Positions 27,112 to 48,089 of a DNA stretch of 64,000 bases are shown here, piece by piece. Position 1 is the first letter of the stretch. Each line of letters begins with the position of its first letter. The notes beneath the pieces were generated by a model. The model was not told the DNA's origin. It worked only from the letters and a program-made list of their open reading frames with translations, and searched no databases. The stretch comes from an uncultured Solirubrobacteraceae bacterium. Lineage in GTDB: Bacteria; Actinomycetota; Thermoleophilia; Solirubrobacterales; Solirubrobacteraceae. A program made the position numbers and the translations under genes. The stretch lies in contig CAWETE010000001.1 of the NCBI GenBank assembly GCA_963811895.1, positions 76,160-140,159 on the forward strand, read 5' to 3'.

Positions 27112-28293
27112 ATGCCCCGGACCCGGACGCTGGTCATCGTGCTCGCCGGCGGCGCCGGCGGCCGCCTCGAGCTGCTCACGCGCGAGCGCGCCAAGCCGGC
27201 GGTGCCGTACGCCGGCACGCACCGGCTGATCGACTTCCCGCTCAGCAACTGCCACAACGCCGGGCTGTCGGACGTCTGGATCTCGCAGCAGTTCAACCCG
27301 ATCTCGCTGTCCGACCATCTGGCCAACGGCCGCCCGTGGGACCTCGACCGGACGATCGGCGGCCTGCTGATCCTGCAGCCGCGGCTCGACCACGGCGATC
27401 GCGGCGGCTTTCAGAAGGGCACCGCCGACGCGCTGTGGCGCAACGCGCCGCTGATCCGCGAGCACGGGCCGGAGGCGCTGGTGGTCGTGAGCGCCGACGC
27501 CATCTACGCGCACGACTACGGGTCGCTGGTCGAGGAGCACATGGCCGGCGACGCGGCGGTCACGATCGTCACCACCGAGGTCGACCCCGACGACGCCGAC
27601 CGTTACGGCGTCGTCTCGGTGCGCGACGGCAAGGTGGTCGACTACGCCTACAAGCCGGACGAGCCGGCCGGGAACCTGGTGGCCAACGAGGTCTTCGTGT
27701 TCCGGCCGGAGCCGCTGCTGGACACGCTCGAGCAGCTCGCGGACGAGGCGGGCGAGGACGAGCTCGAGGACCTCGGCCACGGGCTCCTGCCGCGGCTCGT
27801 CTCGGAGGGCGGTGCGCGTGAGGCGCGCTTCGAGGGCTACTGGCGCGACGTGGGGACGGTCGACGCGTACTGGGAGAGCCACATGGACCTCCTGGGCGAG
27901 GAGCCGCCGATCGACCTCGACGACCCGGACTGGCCGATCCTGACCCACGAGGCGCTGCTGCGCGCCTCCGCCCGCGTGTTCGACGGCGCGGCGATCGAGA
28001 ACTCGCTGGTGGGGCCGGCCGCGCGGGTGGCGGGCTCGGTGTCGCGGTCGGTGGTGGGGCGGGGCGCGGTCGTGGAGGAGGGCGCGGTCGTGCGCGAGTC
28101 GGTGCTGCTGCCCGGTGCGGTGGTGCGGTCGGGCGCGCGCGTGGTGCGCGCGGTGATCGACGACGGCGTCGACATCGGGCGCGACGTAGCCGTGGGGGAG
28201 GACGGCGGCGAGATCGCGCTCGTCGGGCTGCGGGCTTCCGTCAGCGCCGCCGTCCCGGCCGGCGGGCGCTTCCCCGAGGTCGAGGACGACTGA
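27112..28293 (+). CDS. Glucose-1-phosphate adenylyltransferase (GlgC) family nucleotidyltransferase with C-terminal left-handed beta-helix
   Basis: VIVLAGGAGGRLELLTRERAKPAVPYAGTHRLIDFPLSNCHNAGL matches the GlgC N-terminus. C-terminal hexapeptide-like repeats. 11-nt gap after the cupin gene. Confidence 0.7.
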   Translation: MPRTRTLVIVLAGGAGGRLELLTRERAKPAVPYAGTHRLIDFPLSNCHNAGLSDVWISQQFNPISLSDHLANGRPWDLDRTIGGLLILQPRLDHGDRGGFQKGTADALWRNAPLIREHGPEALVVVSADAIYAHDYGSLVEEHMAGDAAVTIVTTEVDPDDADRYGVVSVRDGKVVDYAYKPDEPAGNLVANEVFVFRPEPLLDTLEQLADEAGEDELEDLGHGLLPRLVSEGGAREARFEGYWRDVGTVDAYWESHMDLLGEEPPIDLDDPDWPILTHEALLRASARVFDGAAIENSLVGPAARVAGSVSRSVVGRGAVVEEGAVVRESVLLPGAVVRSGARVVRAVIDDGVDIGRDVAVGEDGGEIALVGLRASVSAAVPAGGRFPEVEDD

Positions 28294-28450
28294 CGAACGT
28301 CAACCCCGGCTGGGTAGGGGAGCGGCGGGGTCGGCCGCACCGGCTTTCTTCATCGAATCCTGTCCCGGGGTCACTATCCGACCCCTATCCAGGATTCGAC
28401 GCCGCGGACGGCTCACCAGCTCCCCTACCCAGCCGCAGTTGACGTTCGTC
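28292..28450. repeat. 159-bp MITE-like element / giant hairpin with 32-bp near-perfect terminal inverted repeats and nested internal palindromes, bridging the stop codons of two convergent genes
   Basis: Left arm gacgaacgtcaaccccggctgggtaggggagc (28292-28323). Right arm gctcccctacccagccgcagttgacgttcgtc (28419-28450). 2 mismatches. Internal palindromes tcgaatcctg/caggattcga and ggggtc/gacccc. Arm ends coincide with TGA 28291-28293 and the TGA complement at 28449-28451. Confidence 0.6.
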
Positions 28451-29918
28451 AACGCATGGCTTCAAGCGGCGTGACCGGCTCCGCCGCCGCGCCGTGCTTG
28501 CGCCGCGCCACCCCGCTCGCCACCGCCGCATGGGCCACGGCATCGGCCACCGACTCGGCCACGCGGCGGTTGAAGACGCTCGGGATGACGTAGTCGGCGT
28601 GCAGCTCGTCCGGCGGGATGACCTTGGCGATCGCCTGGGCCGCGGCGAGCTTCATCTCCTCGTTGATCGTCCTCGCGCGCACGTCCAGCGCGCCGCGGAA
28701 GACGCCCGGGAAGGCGAGCACGTTGTTGATCTGGTTCGGGTAGTCCGAGCGGCCGGTGGCCATCACCGCCACCGCCTCGCCGACGTCCTCGGGCTGGACC
28801 TCGGGCACCGGGTTGGCCATCGCGAAGACGATCGCGCCGCCGGCCATGGTGCGCACGGCCTCCACGCTGAACGCTCCCGGGCCGGCCAGCCCCAGGGCCA
28901 CGTCGGCGCCGGCCAGCACGTCGTTCGCCGCCCCGCGGACGCCGTGCTTGTTCGTGCGCTCGGCCAACGACACCAGCTCGCCGTCCAGTCCGGGCTTCCC
29001 CGCGTACAGCGCGCCTTCGCGGTTGCAGACGATCACGTCGCCGAACCCCTGGGCGAGCATGATCTCGGTGCACGCCACGCCGGCGGCGCCCGCGCCCACC
29101 ACCACCGCGGTCACGTCGTCCGGCCGCTTGCCGACGAGCTTCAGCGCGTTGAGCAGCCCGGCCAGCACCACGATCGCCGTCCCGTGCTGGTCGTCGTGGA
29201 AGACCGGGATGTCGAGCTCCTCGCGCAGCCGCCGCTCGATCTCGAAGCAGCGCGGAGCCGAGATGTCCTCGAGGTTGATGCCGCCGAAGGTCGGAGCCAC
29301 GGCCTTGACGAAGGCCACGATCTCGTCGACGTCCTTGGTGTCGAGGCACAGCGGGAAGGCGTCGACGCCCGCGAACTCCTTGAACAGCATCGCCTTGCCC
29401 TCCATCACGGGCATCGCCGCCTCGGGCCCGATGTCGCCGAGCCCGAGCACCGCGGTGCCGTCGGAGACGACGGCGACGGTGTTGCCCTTGATGGTCAGCG
29501 CCCACGCCTTCGCGCGGTCGTCGTGGACCGCCATGCACACGCGGCCGACGCCCGGCGTGTAGGCCATCGAGAGGTCGTCGCGCGTCTTGAGCGGCAGCTT
29601 GCCGACCACCTCGATCTTGCCGCCCTTGTGCATGAGGAAGGTGCGATCGGAGACGCTGTCCACCTGCACGCCCTCGAGATCGCGTACCGCCCGCACGACG
29701 GCCTCGGCGTGGTCGCCGTCGGCGCACGCGACCGTCACGTCCCGCACGACCTGGCTGGACTCGACGCGCACGAGGTCGATCGCGCCCAGCATCGCGTCCG
29801 TGTCGGCGATCGTGTGGGCCACGCCCGCGAACGTGGCGCCGTGCTGCGGCATGCGGAGCCGCATGGTGAAGCTGTAGGACGCCGAAGGCTGGAGGCGACG
29901 CGGAGTCTCGTCGGACAT
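28449..29918 (-). CDS. NAD(P)-dependent malic enzyme (malate dehydrogenase, decarboxylating) with N-terminal ACT-like domain
   Basis: 489 aa. Malic_M NAD-binding domain ([16 protein letters not shown]) and malic N-domain (YTPGVGRVC). Confidence 0.8.
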
Positions 29919-32704: not shown

Positions 32705-34514
32705 TCCTTCGTAGCGTCGTTCTCACCGTCGTCGCCGGGCTGCTCATCACTGCGCCGGCCGCCGCTTCGCAGAAGGTCCGCAGCTACCGCGTCAGCGAGG
32801 TGCGCGACCTCCTTGACCGCACCAAGGTGACCGTGGCGGGCGCCGCGATCGTGGAGGTCGACCACGCCGAGGTGGTGGCGACCGCCAACCGGCGCGCCGT
32901 GCGCCGCCTGCGCCGCGCGGGCTTCACGGTCGAGCGGATGTCCTCGGTGCGCAAGAAGCTGCGCCGGGCCGGCGGCCGCGCCGCCGCGTTCCCGCCGGCC
33001 GACTCCAGCTACCACGACTACGCCGAGATGGCGGCCGAGGTGAACGCCGTGGCGGCCGCGAACCCGAGCATCGTCTCCCGCGCTTCAGCCTCGGCAAGTC
33101 GTTCCAGGGCCGGGAGATCTTCGCCGTCAAGGTCTCCGACAACGTCGCCACCGACGAGAACGAGCCCGAGGTGCTGTTCACCGCCAACCAGCACGCGCGC
33201 GAGCACCTGACCGTCGAGATGGCGCTGTACATCCTGCAGCCAGCTCACCGCCGAGTACGGACCGACGCGCGGATCACCAACTTCGTCAACAGCCGCGAGA
33301 TCTGGATCGTCTCGATGGTCAACCCGGACGGCGTCGAGTACGACATCGCCACCGGCGGCTACCGGATGTGGCGCAAGAACCGCCAGCCCAACGCCGGGTC
33401 GACGCGGTCGGCACCGACCTCAACCGCAACTGGTCGTTCCAGTGGGGCTGCTGCGGCGGCTCGTCCGGCACGCTTCAGCTCGGAGACGTACCGCGGCCCG
33501 TCGGCCTTCTCGGCGCCCGAGACGCAGCGTGGTGCGCAACTTCGTCAACTCGCGCGTGGTCGGCGGCGTCCAGCAGATCAAGGCGCACATCGACTTGCAC
33601 ACCTACTCCGAGCTGATCCTGTGGCCGTACGGCTACACGACCGCCAACACGACCTCGACGCTCAACGCCAACGACCGCAACGCGCACGCCACGCTCGGCC
33701 AGAACATGGCCGCCACGAACGGCTACACGCCCGAGCAGGCGTCCGACCTCTACATCGCCGACGGCACGATCAACGACTGGATGTGGGGGACGTACAAGAT
33801 CTTCAGCTACACGTTCGAGATGTTCCCGACCGGCTCGAACCCCGGCTTCTATCCGCCCGACGAGCAGATCGGCCCGCAGACCTCGCGCAACCGCGCCGCG
33901 GTCCTGCTGTTCCTCGACGCCTCCGACTGCGTCTACAAGGTGATCGGACTGGGAATGCGGCGGTCCGGCGGCCGAGAGCGTCTACTTCGACAACTTCGAG
34001 GCGGCCAACGGCTGGACGGCGCCCGCGGCCGGTGACACCGCGACCGCCGGCCAGTGGGTGCGCGGCAACCCCGCCGGGACGAACAGCGGTGGCGTCAAGC
34101 AGCTCGACGCCACGGTGAGCGGGAGCAACGACCTCGTGACCGGCGCGTCCGCCGGCGCCGGCGGCGGGTGACTTCGACGTCGACGGCGGCGTGACCACCA
34201 TCACGTCGGGGCCGATCGCGCTCAACCAGTTCGGCAGCTACACGCTGACGTTCTCGCAGTACCTCGCGCACGGCTCGAACTCGAGCAGCGCCGACTACCT
34301 GCGGGTGGGCGTGCAGGTGGGCACCACGACGACGTGGGTCTGGACCCGCACCGGCGCGGCCGCCAACCTGAACGGCGCCTGGAGCACCGCCTCGGCGTCG
34401 CTCAACCAGTTCGCCGGCCAGCCGACCGTCCGGCTCGTCGTGCAGGCCGCCGACGCGTCGACCGCCAGCCTCGTCGAGGCCGGGGTCGACGACGTCAGGA
34501 TCACGGGGAGCTAG
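32701..34514 (+). pseudogene. M14-family zinc carboxypeptidase (carboxypeptidase T-like, secreted) disrupted by at least eight 1-nt indels
   Basis: ATG 32701 (overlaps the previous stop, ATGA). Signal peptide [23 protein letters not shown]. Homologous segments are scattered over all three + frames: ...[20 protein letters not shown]..., ...[24 protein letters not shown]..., ...[27 protein letters not shown]..., ...[20 protein letters not shown]..., ...[19 protein letters not shown]..., ...[22 protein letters not shown]..., and the C-terminal domain ...FDVDGGVTTITSGPIALNQFGS...VDDVRITGS*. Example: gtctcccgcGcttcagcc where removing one g restores VSRFSLGKS. Confidence 0.7.
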
Positions 34515-35342
34515 CTAGCGGTTCGTAACCACCATCGCCGCCATCGCCTGCATCCCGCGCAGGTTGGGATGCAGCGGGGCGGCGGCGTTGCCCGGGATGT
34601 AGGGCTCCACCCAGCGGGTGCCCGACCCGGCGCACGCGTCGCGGCCCGCGCTGGCGCCGTAGACGTCGACGATCGTCGCGGCATTGGCGGCCGCCTGGGT
34701 CGCGAGCATGGCGTTGAGCTGCACCTGCTTCTCCCTCAGCCACCTCACGTCAGCGGGCGTGACGGGCATCCGCGGCCAGCAGCCGTTGCCGCTGTGGGGG
34801 AAGATCGCCGAGTAGTTGAGGACCAGCACCTTCGCGAGCGGCGAGCGGGCGTGGATGCCCTGGAGCACGGCGGCCACCTTCGGCGCGGTGGCGGCGATCC
34901 GCGCGCTGATCTGGTCGCCCCCGCGCGTGTAGCGGTCGCGGCACGGCGAGCCGAACGGCAGCGCGGAGACGCAGTCCAGGGCGAGGTCGGAGAAGCCGAT
35001 GTCGTTGCCGCCGATGCTCAGCGTCACCAGTCGCGTGTCGGCCGACAGCGAGTTGAACTGCGGCGGATTCGGGCCGGGCGAGACGTTCTGCGGCGCCGTC
35101 ATGTGGTCGGTCCGCGCGCCGCTGCAGGTCGCGTCGCCGTACTCGGCGAAGGCCAGCGTGCGCTGGGCGATGCGGCCGTAGTTGTTGCTCGACTTCAGGC
35201 AGCCGAGCGGCGCGAGCGGGTTCGGGATCAGCGGTCCCGCCGCGTACGAGTCACCGAGCGCCGTGTACCGAGGCGCCGCCTCCGCCGTTCCCGCGAAGAC
35301 CGCGGCCACCGCCATCACTGCCAGCACGACACGCACGCGCAT
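34515..35342 (-). CDS. Secreted SGNH/GDSL-family hydrolase (lipase/esterase)
   Basis: ATG at 35342 with ggggaggga RBS. Signal peptide MRVRVVLAVMAVAAVFAGTAEA. GDSY block (YTALGDSYAAG). ~275 aa. Confidence 0.8.
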   Translation of the reverse strand: MRVRVVLAVMAVAAVFAGTAEAAPRYTALGDSYAAGPLIPNPLAPLGCLKSSNNYGRIAQRTLAFAEYGDATCSGARTDHMTAPQNVSPGPNPPQFNSLSADTRLVTLSIGGNDIGFSDLALDCVSALPFGSPCRDRYTRGGDQISARIAATAPKVAAVLQGIHARSPLAKVLVLNYSAIFPHSGNGCWPRMPVTPADVRWLREKQVQLNAMLATQAAANAATIVDVYGASAGRDACAGSGTRWVEPYIPGNAAAPLHPNLRGMQAMAAMVVTNR

Positions 35343-40734: not shown

Positions 40735-41132
40735 AGGTCGTCCACACCTGCGTACGCGTCCGCGACATCGACGCGTCGGTCCGCTTCTACGAGGCGCTGG
40801 GCTTCGAGCGCCGGGGCAAGCTCCAGTTCGAGACCGCCTACAACGTCTACATGGGCCTGCCGGGCGACGGCGACACGCTCGAGCTGACCGTCAACCACGG
40901 CCGCGAGGAGCCGTACGACATCGGCGAGGGCTACAACCACATGGCCATGACGGTCGGCGACATCCACGCGGTCGTCTCCAGGCTCGCCGACCACGGCATC
41001 GAGCCCGAGAAGGCGCCCTACCACCCGGGCGGCCGCAACGAGCTCGGCCCGATCTGCTTCGTCACCGACCCGGACGGCTACCGGATCGAGCTGATCGCCG
41101 GCGAGGAGTTCCCCACCCCGCAGGACGACTAG
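40731..41132 (+). CDS. VOC-family protein / glyoxalase I-like (lactoylglutathione lyase family)
   Basis: 133 aa. MKVVHTCVRVRDIDASVRFYEALGFE...GYNHMAMTVGDIHAVV...GYRIELI. Confidence 0.75.
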   Translation: MKVVHTCVRVRDIDASVRFYEALGFERRGKLQFETAYNVYMGLPGDGDTLELTVNHGREEPYDIGEGYNHMAMTVGDIHAVVSRLADHGIEPEKAPYHPGGRNELGPICFVTDPDGYRIELIAGEEFPTPQDD

Positions 41133-47992: not shown

Positions 47993-48089
47993 AAGGGGGG
48001 TCTGACCCCCCTTGCTCTGTCGCGCGGCACGCGAACGGCTCTACAGCGCGGTTTCGGCCTCGGCGATTAAGGGGGGTCTGACCCCCCTT
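47993..48089. repeat. Two identical 21-nt G6/C6 perfect hairpins (aaggggggtctgaccccccctt-type; 47993-48013 and 48069-48089) 76 nt apart, plus G/C-run-rich spacer, between the LAL regulator 3' end and the ECF sigma start
   Basis: Each is a 9-10-bp perfect stem with a 1-3-nt loop. A third, imperfect G6-a-C5 motif sits at ~47960-47975. The region contains no ORF. Confidence 0.6.

Follow-up and report, generated by a model that had tools for sequence, protein, structure and literature searches.

A 161-nt hairpin between convergent GlgC-like and malic-enzyme genes is probably a miniature transposable element inserted at a shared stop tetranucleotide

In a 64,000-nt stretch of DNA from an uncultured Solirubrobacteraceae bacterium (hereafter the window, meaning the whole stretch analysed), the convergent genes of a GlgC-like nucleotidyltransferase and a malic enzyme are separated only by a long inverted repeat whose terminal trinucleotides, TGA...TCA, are the stop codons of both genes. 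How does a hairpin come to begin and end exactly at two stop codons? We consider it probable that the 161-nt hairpin is a non-autonomous transposable element of the miniature inverted-repeat type (MITE), from a family abundant in Solirubrobacteraceae, inserted in a CTAG or CTAA tetranucleotide shared by the two genes and mobilised in trans by an IS481 transposase. A MITE had been one of two readings offered in the preliminary description of the locus, the other being a structured terminator; it is borne out by a dispersed multi-copy family, by the presence or absence of the element at orthologous junctions, and by relatives with target duplications and an IS481 partner. We infer from sequence comparison that an IS481 transposase may have mobilised the window copy itself, and its membership of the IS481-mobilised group is supported only indirectly.

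The inverted repeat and its two stop codons

The element extends from 28291 to 28451 and fills the entire gap between the two convergent open reading frames (ORFs). It had been described as a 159-bp element at 28292–28450; the location was correct, but the ends change, since both whole stop codons are included. An inverted-repeat search of the window gave two arms of 48 nt, at 28291–28338 and 28404–28451, which are 83% complementary and spaced by 65 nt. Their outer 33 nt read TGACGAACGTCAAC-NN-CGGCTGGGTAGGGGAGC and differ only at the NN dinucleotide (CC on the left, TG on the right), leaving a core of 95 nt, in agreement with the 32-bp arms with two mismatches and the 95-nt core proposed before. 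Both nested palindromes listed at that time, tcgaatcctg/caggattcga and ggggtc/gacccc, are present in the pair 28353–28372 and 28380–28399 found by the same search. The features of the locus are as follows.

28291–28451, no strand assigned: whole non-coding element, subfamily A; inverted repeat, fold, full-length homology to copies in other genomes, and an 86% identical orthologous copy in locus L139
28291–28323, + strand: left terminal inverted repeat, TGACGAACGTCAAC-CC-CGGCTGGGTAGGGGAGC, with TG tip; conserved family end
28324–28338, + strand: imperfect inner continuation of the left arm; inverted-repeat search, aligns with the subfamily-A segment GGGGAGGCCGGCGGGGCCGG
28333–28355, + strand only: small G+C hairpin GGCCGCACCGGCT followed by the T-rich tail TTCTTCATCG, terminator-like; consensus scan, 1 site against 0.2 expected
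28353–28399, no strand assigned: central palindrome, holding a 39-nt hairpin module at 28357–28395 (ATCCTG..GGGGTC-loop-GACCCC..CAGGAT); inverted-repeat search
28404–28418, + strand: imperfect inner continuation of the right arm; inverted-repeat search and subfamily-A alignment
28419–28451, − strand: right terminal inverted repeat, TGACGAACGTCAAC-TG-CGGCTGGGTAGGGGAGC on the minus strand, with CA tip on the + strand; near-identical to the short tip of locus L129
28291–28293, + strand: TGA stop of the GlgC-like gene, which doubles as the opening trinucleotide of the left tip; empty orthologous sites have TAG or TAA of CTAG/CTAA instead
28449–28451, − strand: TGA stop of the malic-enzyme gene (tca on the + strand), which doubles as the opening trinucleotide of the right tip; empty sites have TAG of the shared CTAG
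27112–28293, + strand: GlgC-like sugar-phosphate nucleotidyltransferase; Pfam NTP_transferase and Hexapep_GlmU, homologues labelled glucose-1-phosphate adenylyltransferase
28449–29918, − strand: malic enzyme; Pfam malic and Malic_M

Both strands fold strongly: the calculated energies are −113.4 kcal/mol (z = −11.7) for the + strand and −123.9 kcal/mol (z = −12.8) for the − strand, and 0 of 200 shuffles folded as well as the element. The 22-nt arm core occurs twice in the window against 0.02 occurrences expected. These two results together indicate that the inverted repeat is not due to chance.

A very stable hairpin directly after two stops, with a terminator-like site on the + strand, could be an ordinary conserved terminator or attenuator of the host, or a structured RNA gene that merely resembles a repeat. 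As to architecture, the bidirectional terminator envisaged earlier did not emerge: a single weak site, a hairpin trailed by a T-rich stretch, lies on the + strand, and the − strand has no such site. A search of Rfam with the element at permissive thresholds gave no family, the best matches being generic miRNA hairpins at 27–30 bits against gathering thresholds of 137–168 (top score 29.7 bits against 168); scans of the element for tRNA and tmRNA gave none, and blastn against a plasmid collection gave no match. In addition, copies are dispersed at unrelated loci, and the reading is contradicted by the orthologous junctions without the element that are described below, namely the closest one (L111, 7% gene divergence) and three others. 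We therefore regard a host terminator or RNA gene as extremely unlikely.

Filled and empty alleles of the junction

We compared 12 orthologous junctions, the window and 11 others retrieved via close homologues of the GlgC-like protein. Four are empty, five are full, two are truncated, and one holds an 8-nt remnant. The empty junctions read ..GACGA-CTAG-CGCAT.. in L111, L113, and L117 and ..GACGA-CTAA-CGCAT.. in L138; in these, the two genes overlap by 4 bases, so that one tetranucleotide is the stop of both, and this CTAG or CTAA falls exactly at the insertion point. The junction of L111, whose gene is just 7% diverged from that of the window, is the closest of all, and it is empty with its CTAG intact. 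That 4 of the 12 junctions lack the element rejects a conserved bidirectional terminator as its origin, the second of the readings first offered.

Full elements are found in the window, L139, L114, L118 (237 nt and additional internal repeats), and L112, whose interior is of another subfamily. At L115 and L137, all that remains is the left arm with some of the interior, and the junction of L116 retains 8 nt, as TAG-AACGTCAG-CGC (L116 2686–2696); the remnant AACGTCAG looks as if short repeats at the element base had recombined out what lay between them in a deletion stimulated by the hairpin. The copies in the window and L139 are co-linear and 86% identical, about as similar as the adjacent gene (89%), and have the left junction GACGAC/TGACGAAC in common (the slash marks the junction). 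This common junction and the co-linearity indicate that the two copies descend from one insertion.

The C-termini of the proteins are equal in filled and empty alleles: ..EVEDD* or ..EVDDD* for the GlgC-like protein and ..EAMR* for the malic enzyme. It follows that the element supplies the stop codons and zero residues. The earlier suggestion that it donates both C-termini and stops is thus correct for the stops, as the TGA/TCA tips and the tip of L129 indicate, but not for the C-termini, where the same residues (..PEVEDD* and ..LEAMR*) are encoded in genomes without it.

Empty and filled alleles were also paired at other sites, L003 (a TTAG overlap of two stops) with L087 and L032 with L012. 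Sites in the window that resemble the flanks of L026 and L100 were considered as empty sites and proved too diverged for use.

A dispersed family and its apparent IS481-type partner

We scanned contigs of one genome per species, in 8-kb blocks, with the exact 17-mer CGGCTGGGTAGGGGAGC. It is present in at least 110 stretches of the genome collection, and 71 of the matches listed are Solirubrobacteraceae or Solirubrobacterales metagenome-assembled genomes (MAGs); three single MAGs have at least 17, at least 12, and at least 12 separate blocks with the 17-mer. The other listed matches occur singly and scattered; they lack homology around the 17-mer and are due to chance. A search with an arm profile found the family arm in at least 68 loci of Solirubrobacteraceae genomes. 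Typical pairs of arms face each other 80–450 nt apart, and apparently unpaired arms have a more diverged partner.

The conserved family end is (C)CGG-CGAACGTCAAC-NN-CGGCTGGGTAGGGGAGC; some 4 nt beyond CGAACG the conservation tails off, and in comparisons of paralogues similarity ends 0–11 nt outside the conserved end. The tip class TGA(G)CGAACG accounts for 9 of 65 ends from a pattern scan, the two of the window included. The elements measure 80–450 nt. Several subfamilies have inverted ends of about 30 nt in common, with interiors that are unrelated and themselves palindromic, and none of the family elements carries a transposase. In subfamily A, the interior consists of a G+C hairpin followed by TTTTCTT and of one to three copies of the 39-nt near-perfect hairpin module; GGCCGGCGGGGCCGGTTTTCTTCG, the homologue of the hairpin and T-rich tail of the window, is conserved in this subfamily. 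No autonomous copy was found in the 8-kb blocks, where we looked for arm pairs 0.7–3 kb apart and for repeated or transposase-like proteins, and limited literature searches gave nothing specific on Solirubrobacter or Conexibacter repeats or on the arm sequence.

Some details of the interiors should be noted. The elements at L026 6949–7392 and L118 2688–2925 have interiors of tandem units of about 60 nt with GCATTTCGTCGCAC / TGCACGAAA, and elements of this kind reach 237–444 nt. The central 39-nt module has CCTAGG, an NCTAGN site, in each arm in, for example, L030 1406–1444 and L114 4231–4269; the module of the window copy has lost both CTAGs. Two or three modules per element occur in L010, L030, L067, L103, and L129, which could represent nested insertions or duplication of the module.

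A link to IS481 elements is seen in longer-ended relatives. The subfamily-A copies L030, L067, L103, and L043 carry extra outer inverted repeats, TGTAAGTACCGAGCACGTTGTTC.. and TGTAGTTCCTGAGCAGGTTGTTC.., and the outer tips TGTAAGTACCGAGCA.. / TGTAGTTCCTGAGCA.. occur on relatives with subfamily-A interiors, L030, L067, L121, and L129, which are flanked by perfect 6-bp NCTAGN duplications (GCTAGA, CCTAGA, GCTAGC, and ACTAGG, respectively). The interior of L067 is 92% identical to that of the short-ended copy L010. A metagenome scan with the outer 22-mer gave 18 stretches, including two more MITEs (L121 and L129); in L119, L122, L123, L130, and L136, the 22-mer falls in conserved coding sequence of low-G+C contigs that have no relation to the element, and these are chance or unrelated matches.

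Nine of the metagenome stretches have the TGTAAG.. tip beside a transposase gene, and four of these nine (L124, L125, L126, and L134) contain complete insertion sequences (IS) of 1049–1053 bp with both tips. Their target duplications are exact in L124 (CCTAGC) and L125 (CCTAGG) and agree at 5 of 6 positions in L134; in L126, the second copy reads GCTGAT. At this left-end flank of L126 (about 1319–1330), GCTAGC on one side faces GCTGAT(AGC) on the other, again a change of CTAG to CTGA beside a transposon tip. The transposase (323 aa) scores 285.6 bits against the NCBIfam model NF033577 'IS481 family transposase' (cutoff 224), and its stop codon is the TAG of the target duplication. The same is reported of IS481 members in Actinobacteria: CTAG is their target, insertion duplicates NCTAGN, and the TAG is lent to genes as a stop codon (PMC2516522, PMC6794481).

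The long-tipped relatives have about 30 nt per end in common with the IS481-family IS, whereas the short tips of the window do not and are linked to it only via L129 and the interiors. L121 has both IS tips and is flanked by a GCTAGC duplication. L129 is a hybrid, with an IS481 tip on one side and a short window-type tip, ..CCCTACCCAGCCGCAGTTGACGTTCGCTCA, on the other, and ACTAGG flanking both sides; its short tip is one base different from the right end of the window element and ends ..CGTTCGCTCA / ..GTTGACGTTCGCTCA, adjoining the intact duplication. This hybrid is the one direct indication that a window-type tip (TGA(G)CGAACG.., TG...CA) may act as an IS481-style transposon end. The termini are of the TG...CA form in both cases, TGACG...CGTCA in the window and TGTAAG.../...CTACA in the IS.

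Duplication of TA (the IS630/Tc1 type), or insertion between T and A with no duplication, was also tried and rejected, since the TA triplets at the ends are mostly converging stop codons. The only clean duplications among family copies are 6-bp NCTAGN.

The same data bear on a different transposition chemistry. REPINs, mobilised by RAYTs (REP-associated tyrosine transposases, Y1/HUH rather than DDE type), consist of two inverted units of the repetitive extragenic palindromic (REP) kind (Bertels and Rainey 2011; PMC3337134 / PMC3116915). The present family resembles them in its conserved core of about 25–30 nt with GTAG (CGGCTGGGTAGGGGAGC), set in inverted doublets with a variable spacer and forming long hairpins, in its high copy number, in the lack of target duplications in most copies, and in an extragenic position, in many cases between convergent genes, which is also on record for REPs (PMC3184786). 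Unlike REPINs, four relatives that share the interior carry IS481 tips and perfect 6-bp duplications, NCTAGN, of DDE type, one of them with a short tip; the 17-mer core itself is not palindromic; and RAYT was not seen in the sampled 8-kb blocks or the window. A REPIN-type origin is, in our estimate, very unlikely.

Several observations weigh against IS481 mobilisation of the window element and should be set against the above. Its tips, TGA/TCA, differ from the TGT/ACA tips of about 24 nt of the identified IS, and 'TG' just outside the conserved arm (CGAACG) is not enriched in the family (29% against 27% background). A short tip stands beside an intact duplication in one relative only, L129; most short-ended copies have no clean duplications, and none of the copies with two short ends in this sample has one. 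No IS481 transposase was found in the window (tblastn) or in the sampled MAG blocks around copies, and the element is single in the window, a count that covers the window only. In trees of the flanks built by neighbour joining, the empty alleles of the GlgC/malic junction interleave with the filled ones; we conclude that this site has undergone repeated gain and/or loss of the element, or exchange of alleles by recombination. Finally, the flanks of the window copy, GACGAC/ and /ACGCAT, contain no direct repeat, so that the expected target duplication is absent, and the loss of CTAG from both duplicates would need extra events or a different integration chemistry.

This last point can be followed base by base. 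The window sequence GACGAC/TGACG...CGTCA/ACGCAT equals the expected GACG-ACTAGC-[TG..CA]-ACTAGC-GCAT minus CTAG in both copies; alternatively, compared with the CTAA allele of L138, the element replaces TA. The right junction of L139 retains CTA, which serves as the TAG stop, and has no TCA tip. This argues for a former copy of the target outside the tip and for later trimming of the junctions, always with one in-frame stop kept. Most other TGA(G)-tipped ends have no CTAG and use the tip as the stop, and ends that retain (C/G/T)TAG have no TG tip. The absent CTAG may be due to erosion, the tetranucleotide being disfavoured, or else to integration with another outcome.

Gene ends, host effects, and comparison with known systems

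Why do the copies sit at gene ends? CTAG is depleted about ten-fold in the window (15 occurrences against 156 expected from base composition), and TAG stops of putative genes account for 10 of these 15. Among 97 family ends with enough flank, 67 face a converging ORF with high G+C at third codon positions and a stop at −70 to +40 nt relative to the start of the arm; in about 50 the distance is at most about 20 nt, and TAG makes up 41 of these 67 stops (61%) against 39% elsewhere in the same loci. Given the IS481 target and these counts, it appears that family members abut gene ends because CTAG is rare in a 73% G+C genome and lies mostly at TAG stops. TAG ends about 39–47% of putative genes in the window and in the Solirubrobacteraceae loci L001–L110, which is unusually high for 73% G+C. 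The window has a second 4-nt CTAG overlap of convergent stops at 41129–41132, and at 34511–34518 two convergent stops meet in CTAGCTAG; neither site is occupied, and both correspond in kind to the empty GlgC/malic junctions.

Worded as a model, the events at the locus would be these. Ancestral GlgC-like and malic-enzyme genes would have converged with a 4-base overlap in which one CTAG (or CTAA) formed both stops, and the element would have landed in this tetranucleotide, mobilised in trans by a CTAG-targeting, NCTAGN-duplicating DDE transposase of the IS481 family. A transposon seeking CTAG would land mostly on stops, and a duplication bearing CTAG would give TAG back to both converging genes. 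The TG..CA tips (TGA... ...TCA) would then have come to serve as both stop codons with the amino acids unchanged. For the host, the formerly overlapping genes would be separated, both transcripts would gain a very stable 3' hairpin, and the + strand gene would also gain a weak module like an intrinsic terminator.

It may be asked whether the host has put such an insertion to use, as a domesticated gene-end module that gives stops, separates genes, and terminates or stabilises both transcripts. Stops abut both ends in the 10 of 25 subfamily-A copies that lie between convergent genes; the window and L139 copies keep their length and hairpin over about 11% flank divergence; the G+C hairpin with its T-tract is conserved in subfamily A; and in 15 of 19 subfamily-A copies the better fold is that of the model strand, not of its complement. 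Pairing in the 27 distinct 39-nt modules found in relatives is 0.841 compared with 0.812 ± 0.010 in column shuffles (3 of 1000), with some compensatory pairs. However, the element is absent from 4 of the 12 orthologous junctions and reduced to fragments in 3 others, other subfamilies have no T-tract, and the main hairpin has no U-tract on either strand, coding sequence coming next. The NN dinucleotide matches from arm to arm in 12 of 27 pairs, about chance level, so that the two arms vary independently, and subfamily-A copies show no orientation bias relative to flanking genes. Overall, co-option by the host seems unlikely.

A wider version, speculative and with only a small chance of being right, is that a superfamily of IS481-derived MITEs is kept by Solirubrobacteraceae as gene-end modules, which would home to shared CTAGs, hand over their tip stops, erase the CTAG, and insulate convergent transcription with the 39-nt hairpins; if true, it would amount to a mobile source of bidirectional terminators. 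The view easiest to defend treats the element as a selfish insertion that the host tolerates and that incidentally un-overlaps two genes and probably places a strong 3' stem-loop from each stop.

As a MITE, the element resembles bacterial families such as Nezha and Correia/CREE, which are likewise small, non-coding, and dispersed, with terminal inverted repeats, a long stem-loop, filled and empty orthologous sites, and in some members ends matching an autonomous IS (Delihas 2011, PMC3184786). With 161 nt (less than about 400 bp), it has no transposase and shows terminal inverted repeats, copies, a fold, and filled and empty sites; target-site duplications are absent at the window copy, but 6-bp NCTAGN duplications are present in its relatives L030, L067, L121, and L129. 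Besides this missing duplication, it departs from MITEs in general in having several interiors per pair of ends and a partner that is apparently of IS481 type. Limited searches of the literature found no report of IS481-derived MITEs or of the present family.

Among IS481 elements of Actinobacteria, ISLxc2/ISLxx4 of Leifsonia and ISRe46/TnRErm46 of Rhodococcus equi have a CTAG target and a 6-bp NCTAGN duplication, whose TAG is the stop for the transposase and neighbouring genes (PMC2516522, PMC6794481), and the IS of about 1050 bp identified here is alike. Unlike them, the window element lacks a transposase, ends in TGACGAACG tips where theirs are TGT plus about 20 nt, and no longer has CTAG at its flanks; its own tip (TGA) is the stop, whereas in the IS the duplicated TAG is.

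SPRITE of Streptococcus pneumoniae and REPs of Pseudomonas syringae also lie between convergent genes (PMC3184786), but they are unrelated in sequence and host, and the bias seen here is explicable by a CTAG target at TAG stops. In contrast to these, the terminator-like module of the present family is limited to one subfamily and one strand. The TRIT motif of Mycobacterium tuberculosis, said to have been described by Czyz et al. in 2014, reportedly comprises repeated terminator-like hairpins between convergent genes that are short and canonical, with a U-tract. The present element, also an actinobacterial repeated hairpin between convergent genes, is unlike this motif in its 161 nt, its transposon-like character, and a main stem with no U-tract.

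The repeat family, from soil Solirubrobacteraceae, is previously unnamed; the kind of element, a MITE, is ordinary and opens no new category of biology, but its position is instructive. It gives a concrete sequence-level example of how CTAG target choice and genome composition may funnel a transposon into stop codons, and shows that overlapping convergent genes are separable with no change to either protein. The definition of the family, in a poorly studied soil lineage, and of its apparent IS481-type partner helps annotation, because such hairpins might else be taken for terminators or small RNAs, and the filled and empty alleles are natural material for testing hairpin termination in high-G+C Actinomycetota.

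A further small palindrome should be mentioned. Two exact copies of the 21-nt sequence AAGGGGGGTCTGACCCCCCTT stand in the window at a distance of 76 nt, at 47993–48013 and 48069–48089; a minus-strand ORF has its CTAG/TAG stop (48096) just beyond them. A similar core, GGGGTCTGACCCC, lies inside some subfamily-A modules (e.g., L030 1345–1383), and these palindromes may represent a second small repeat family.

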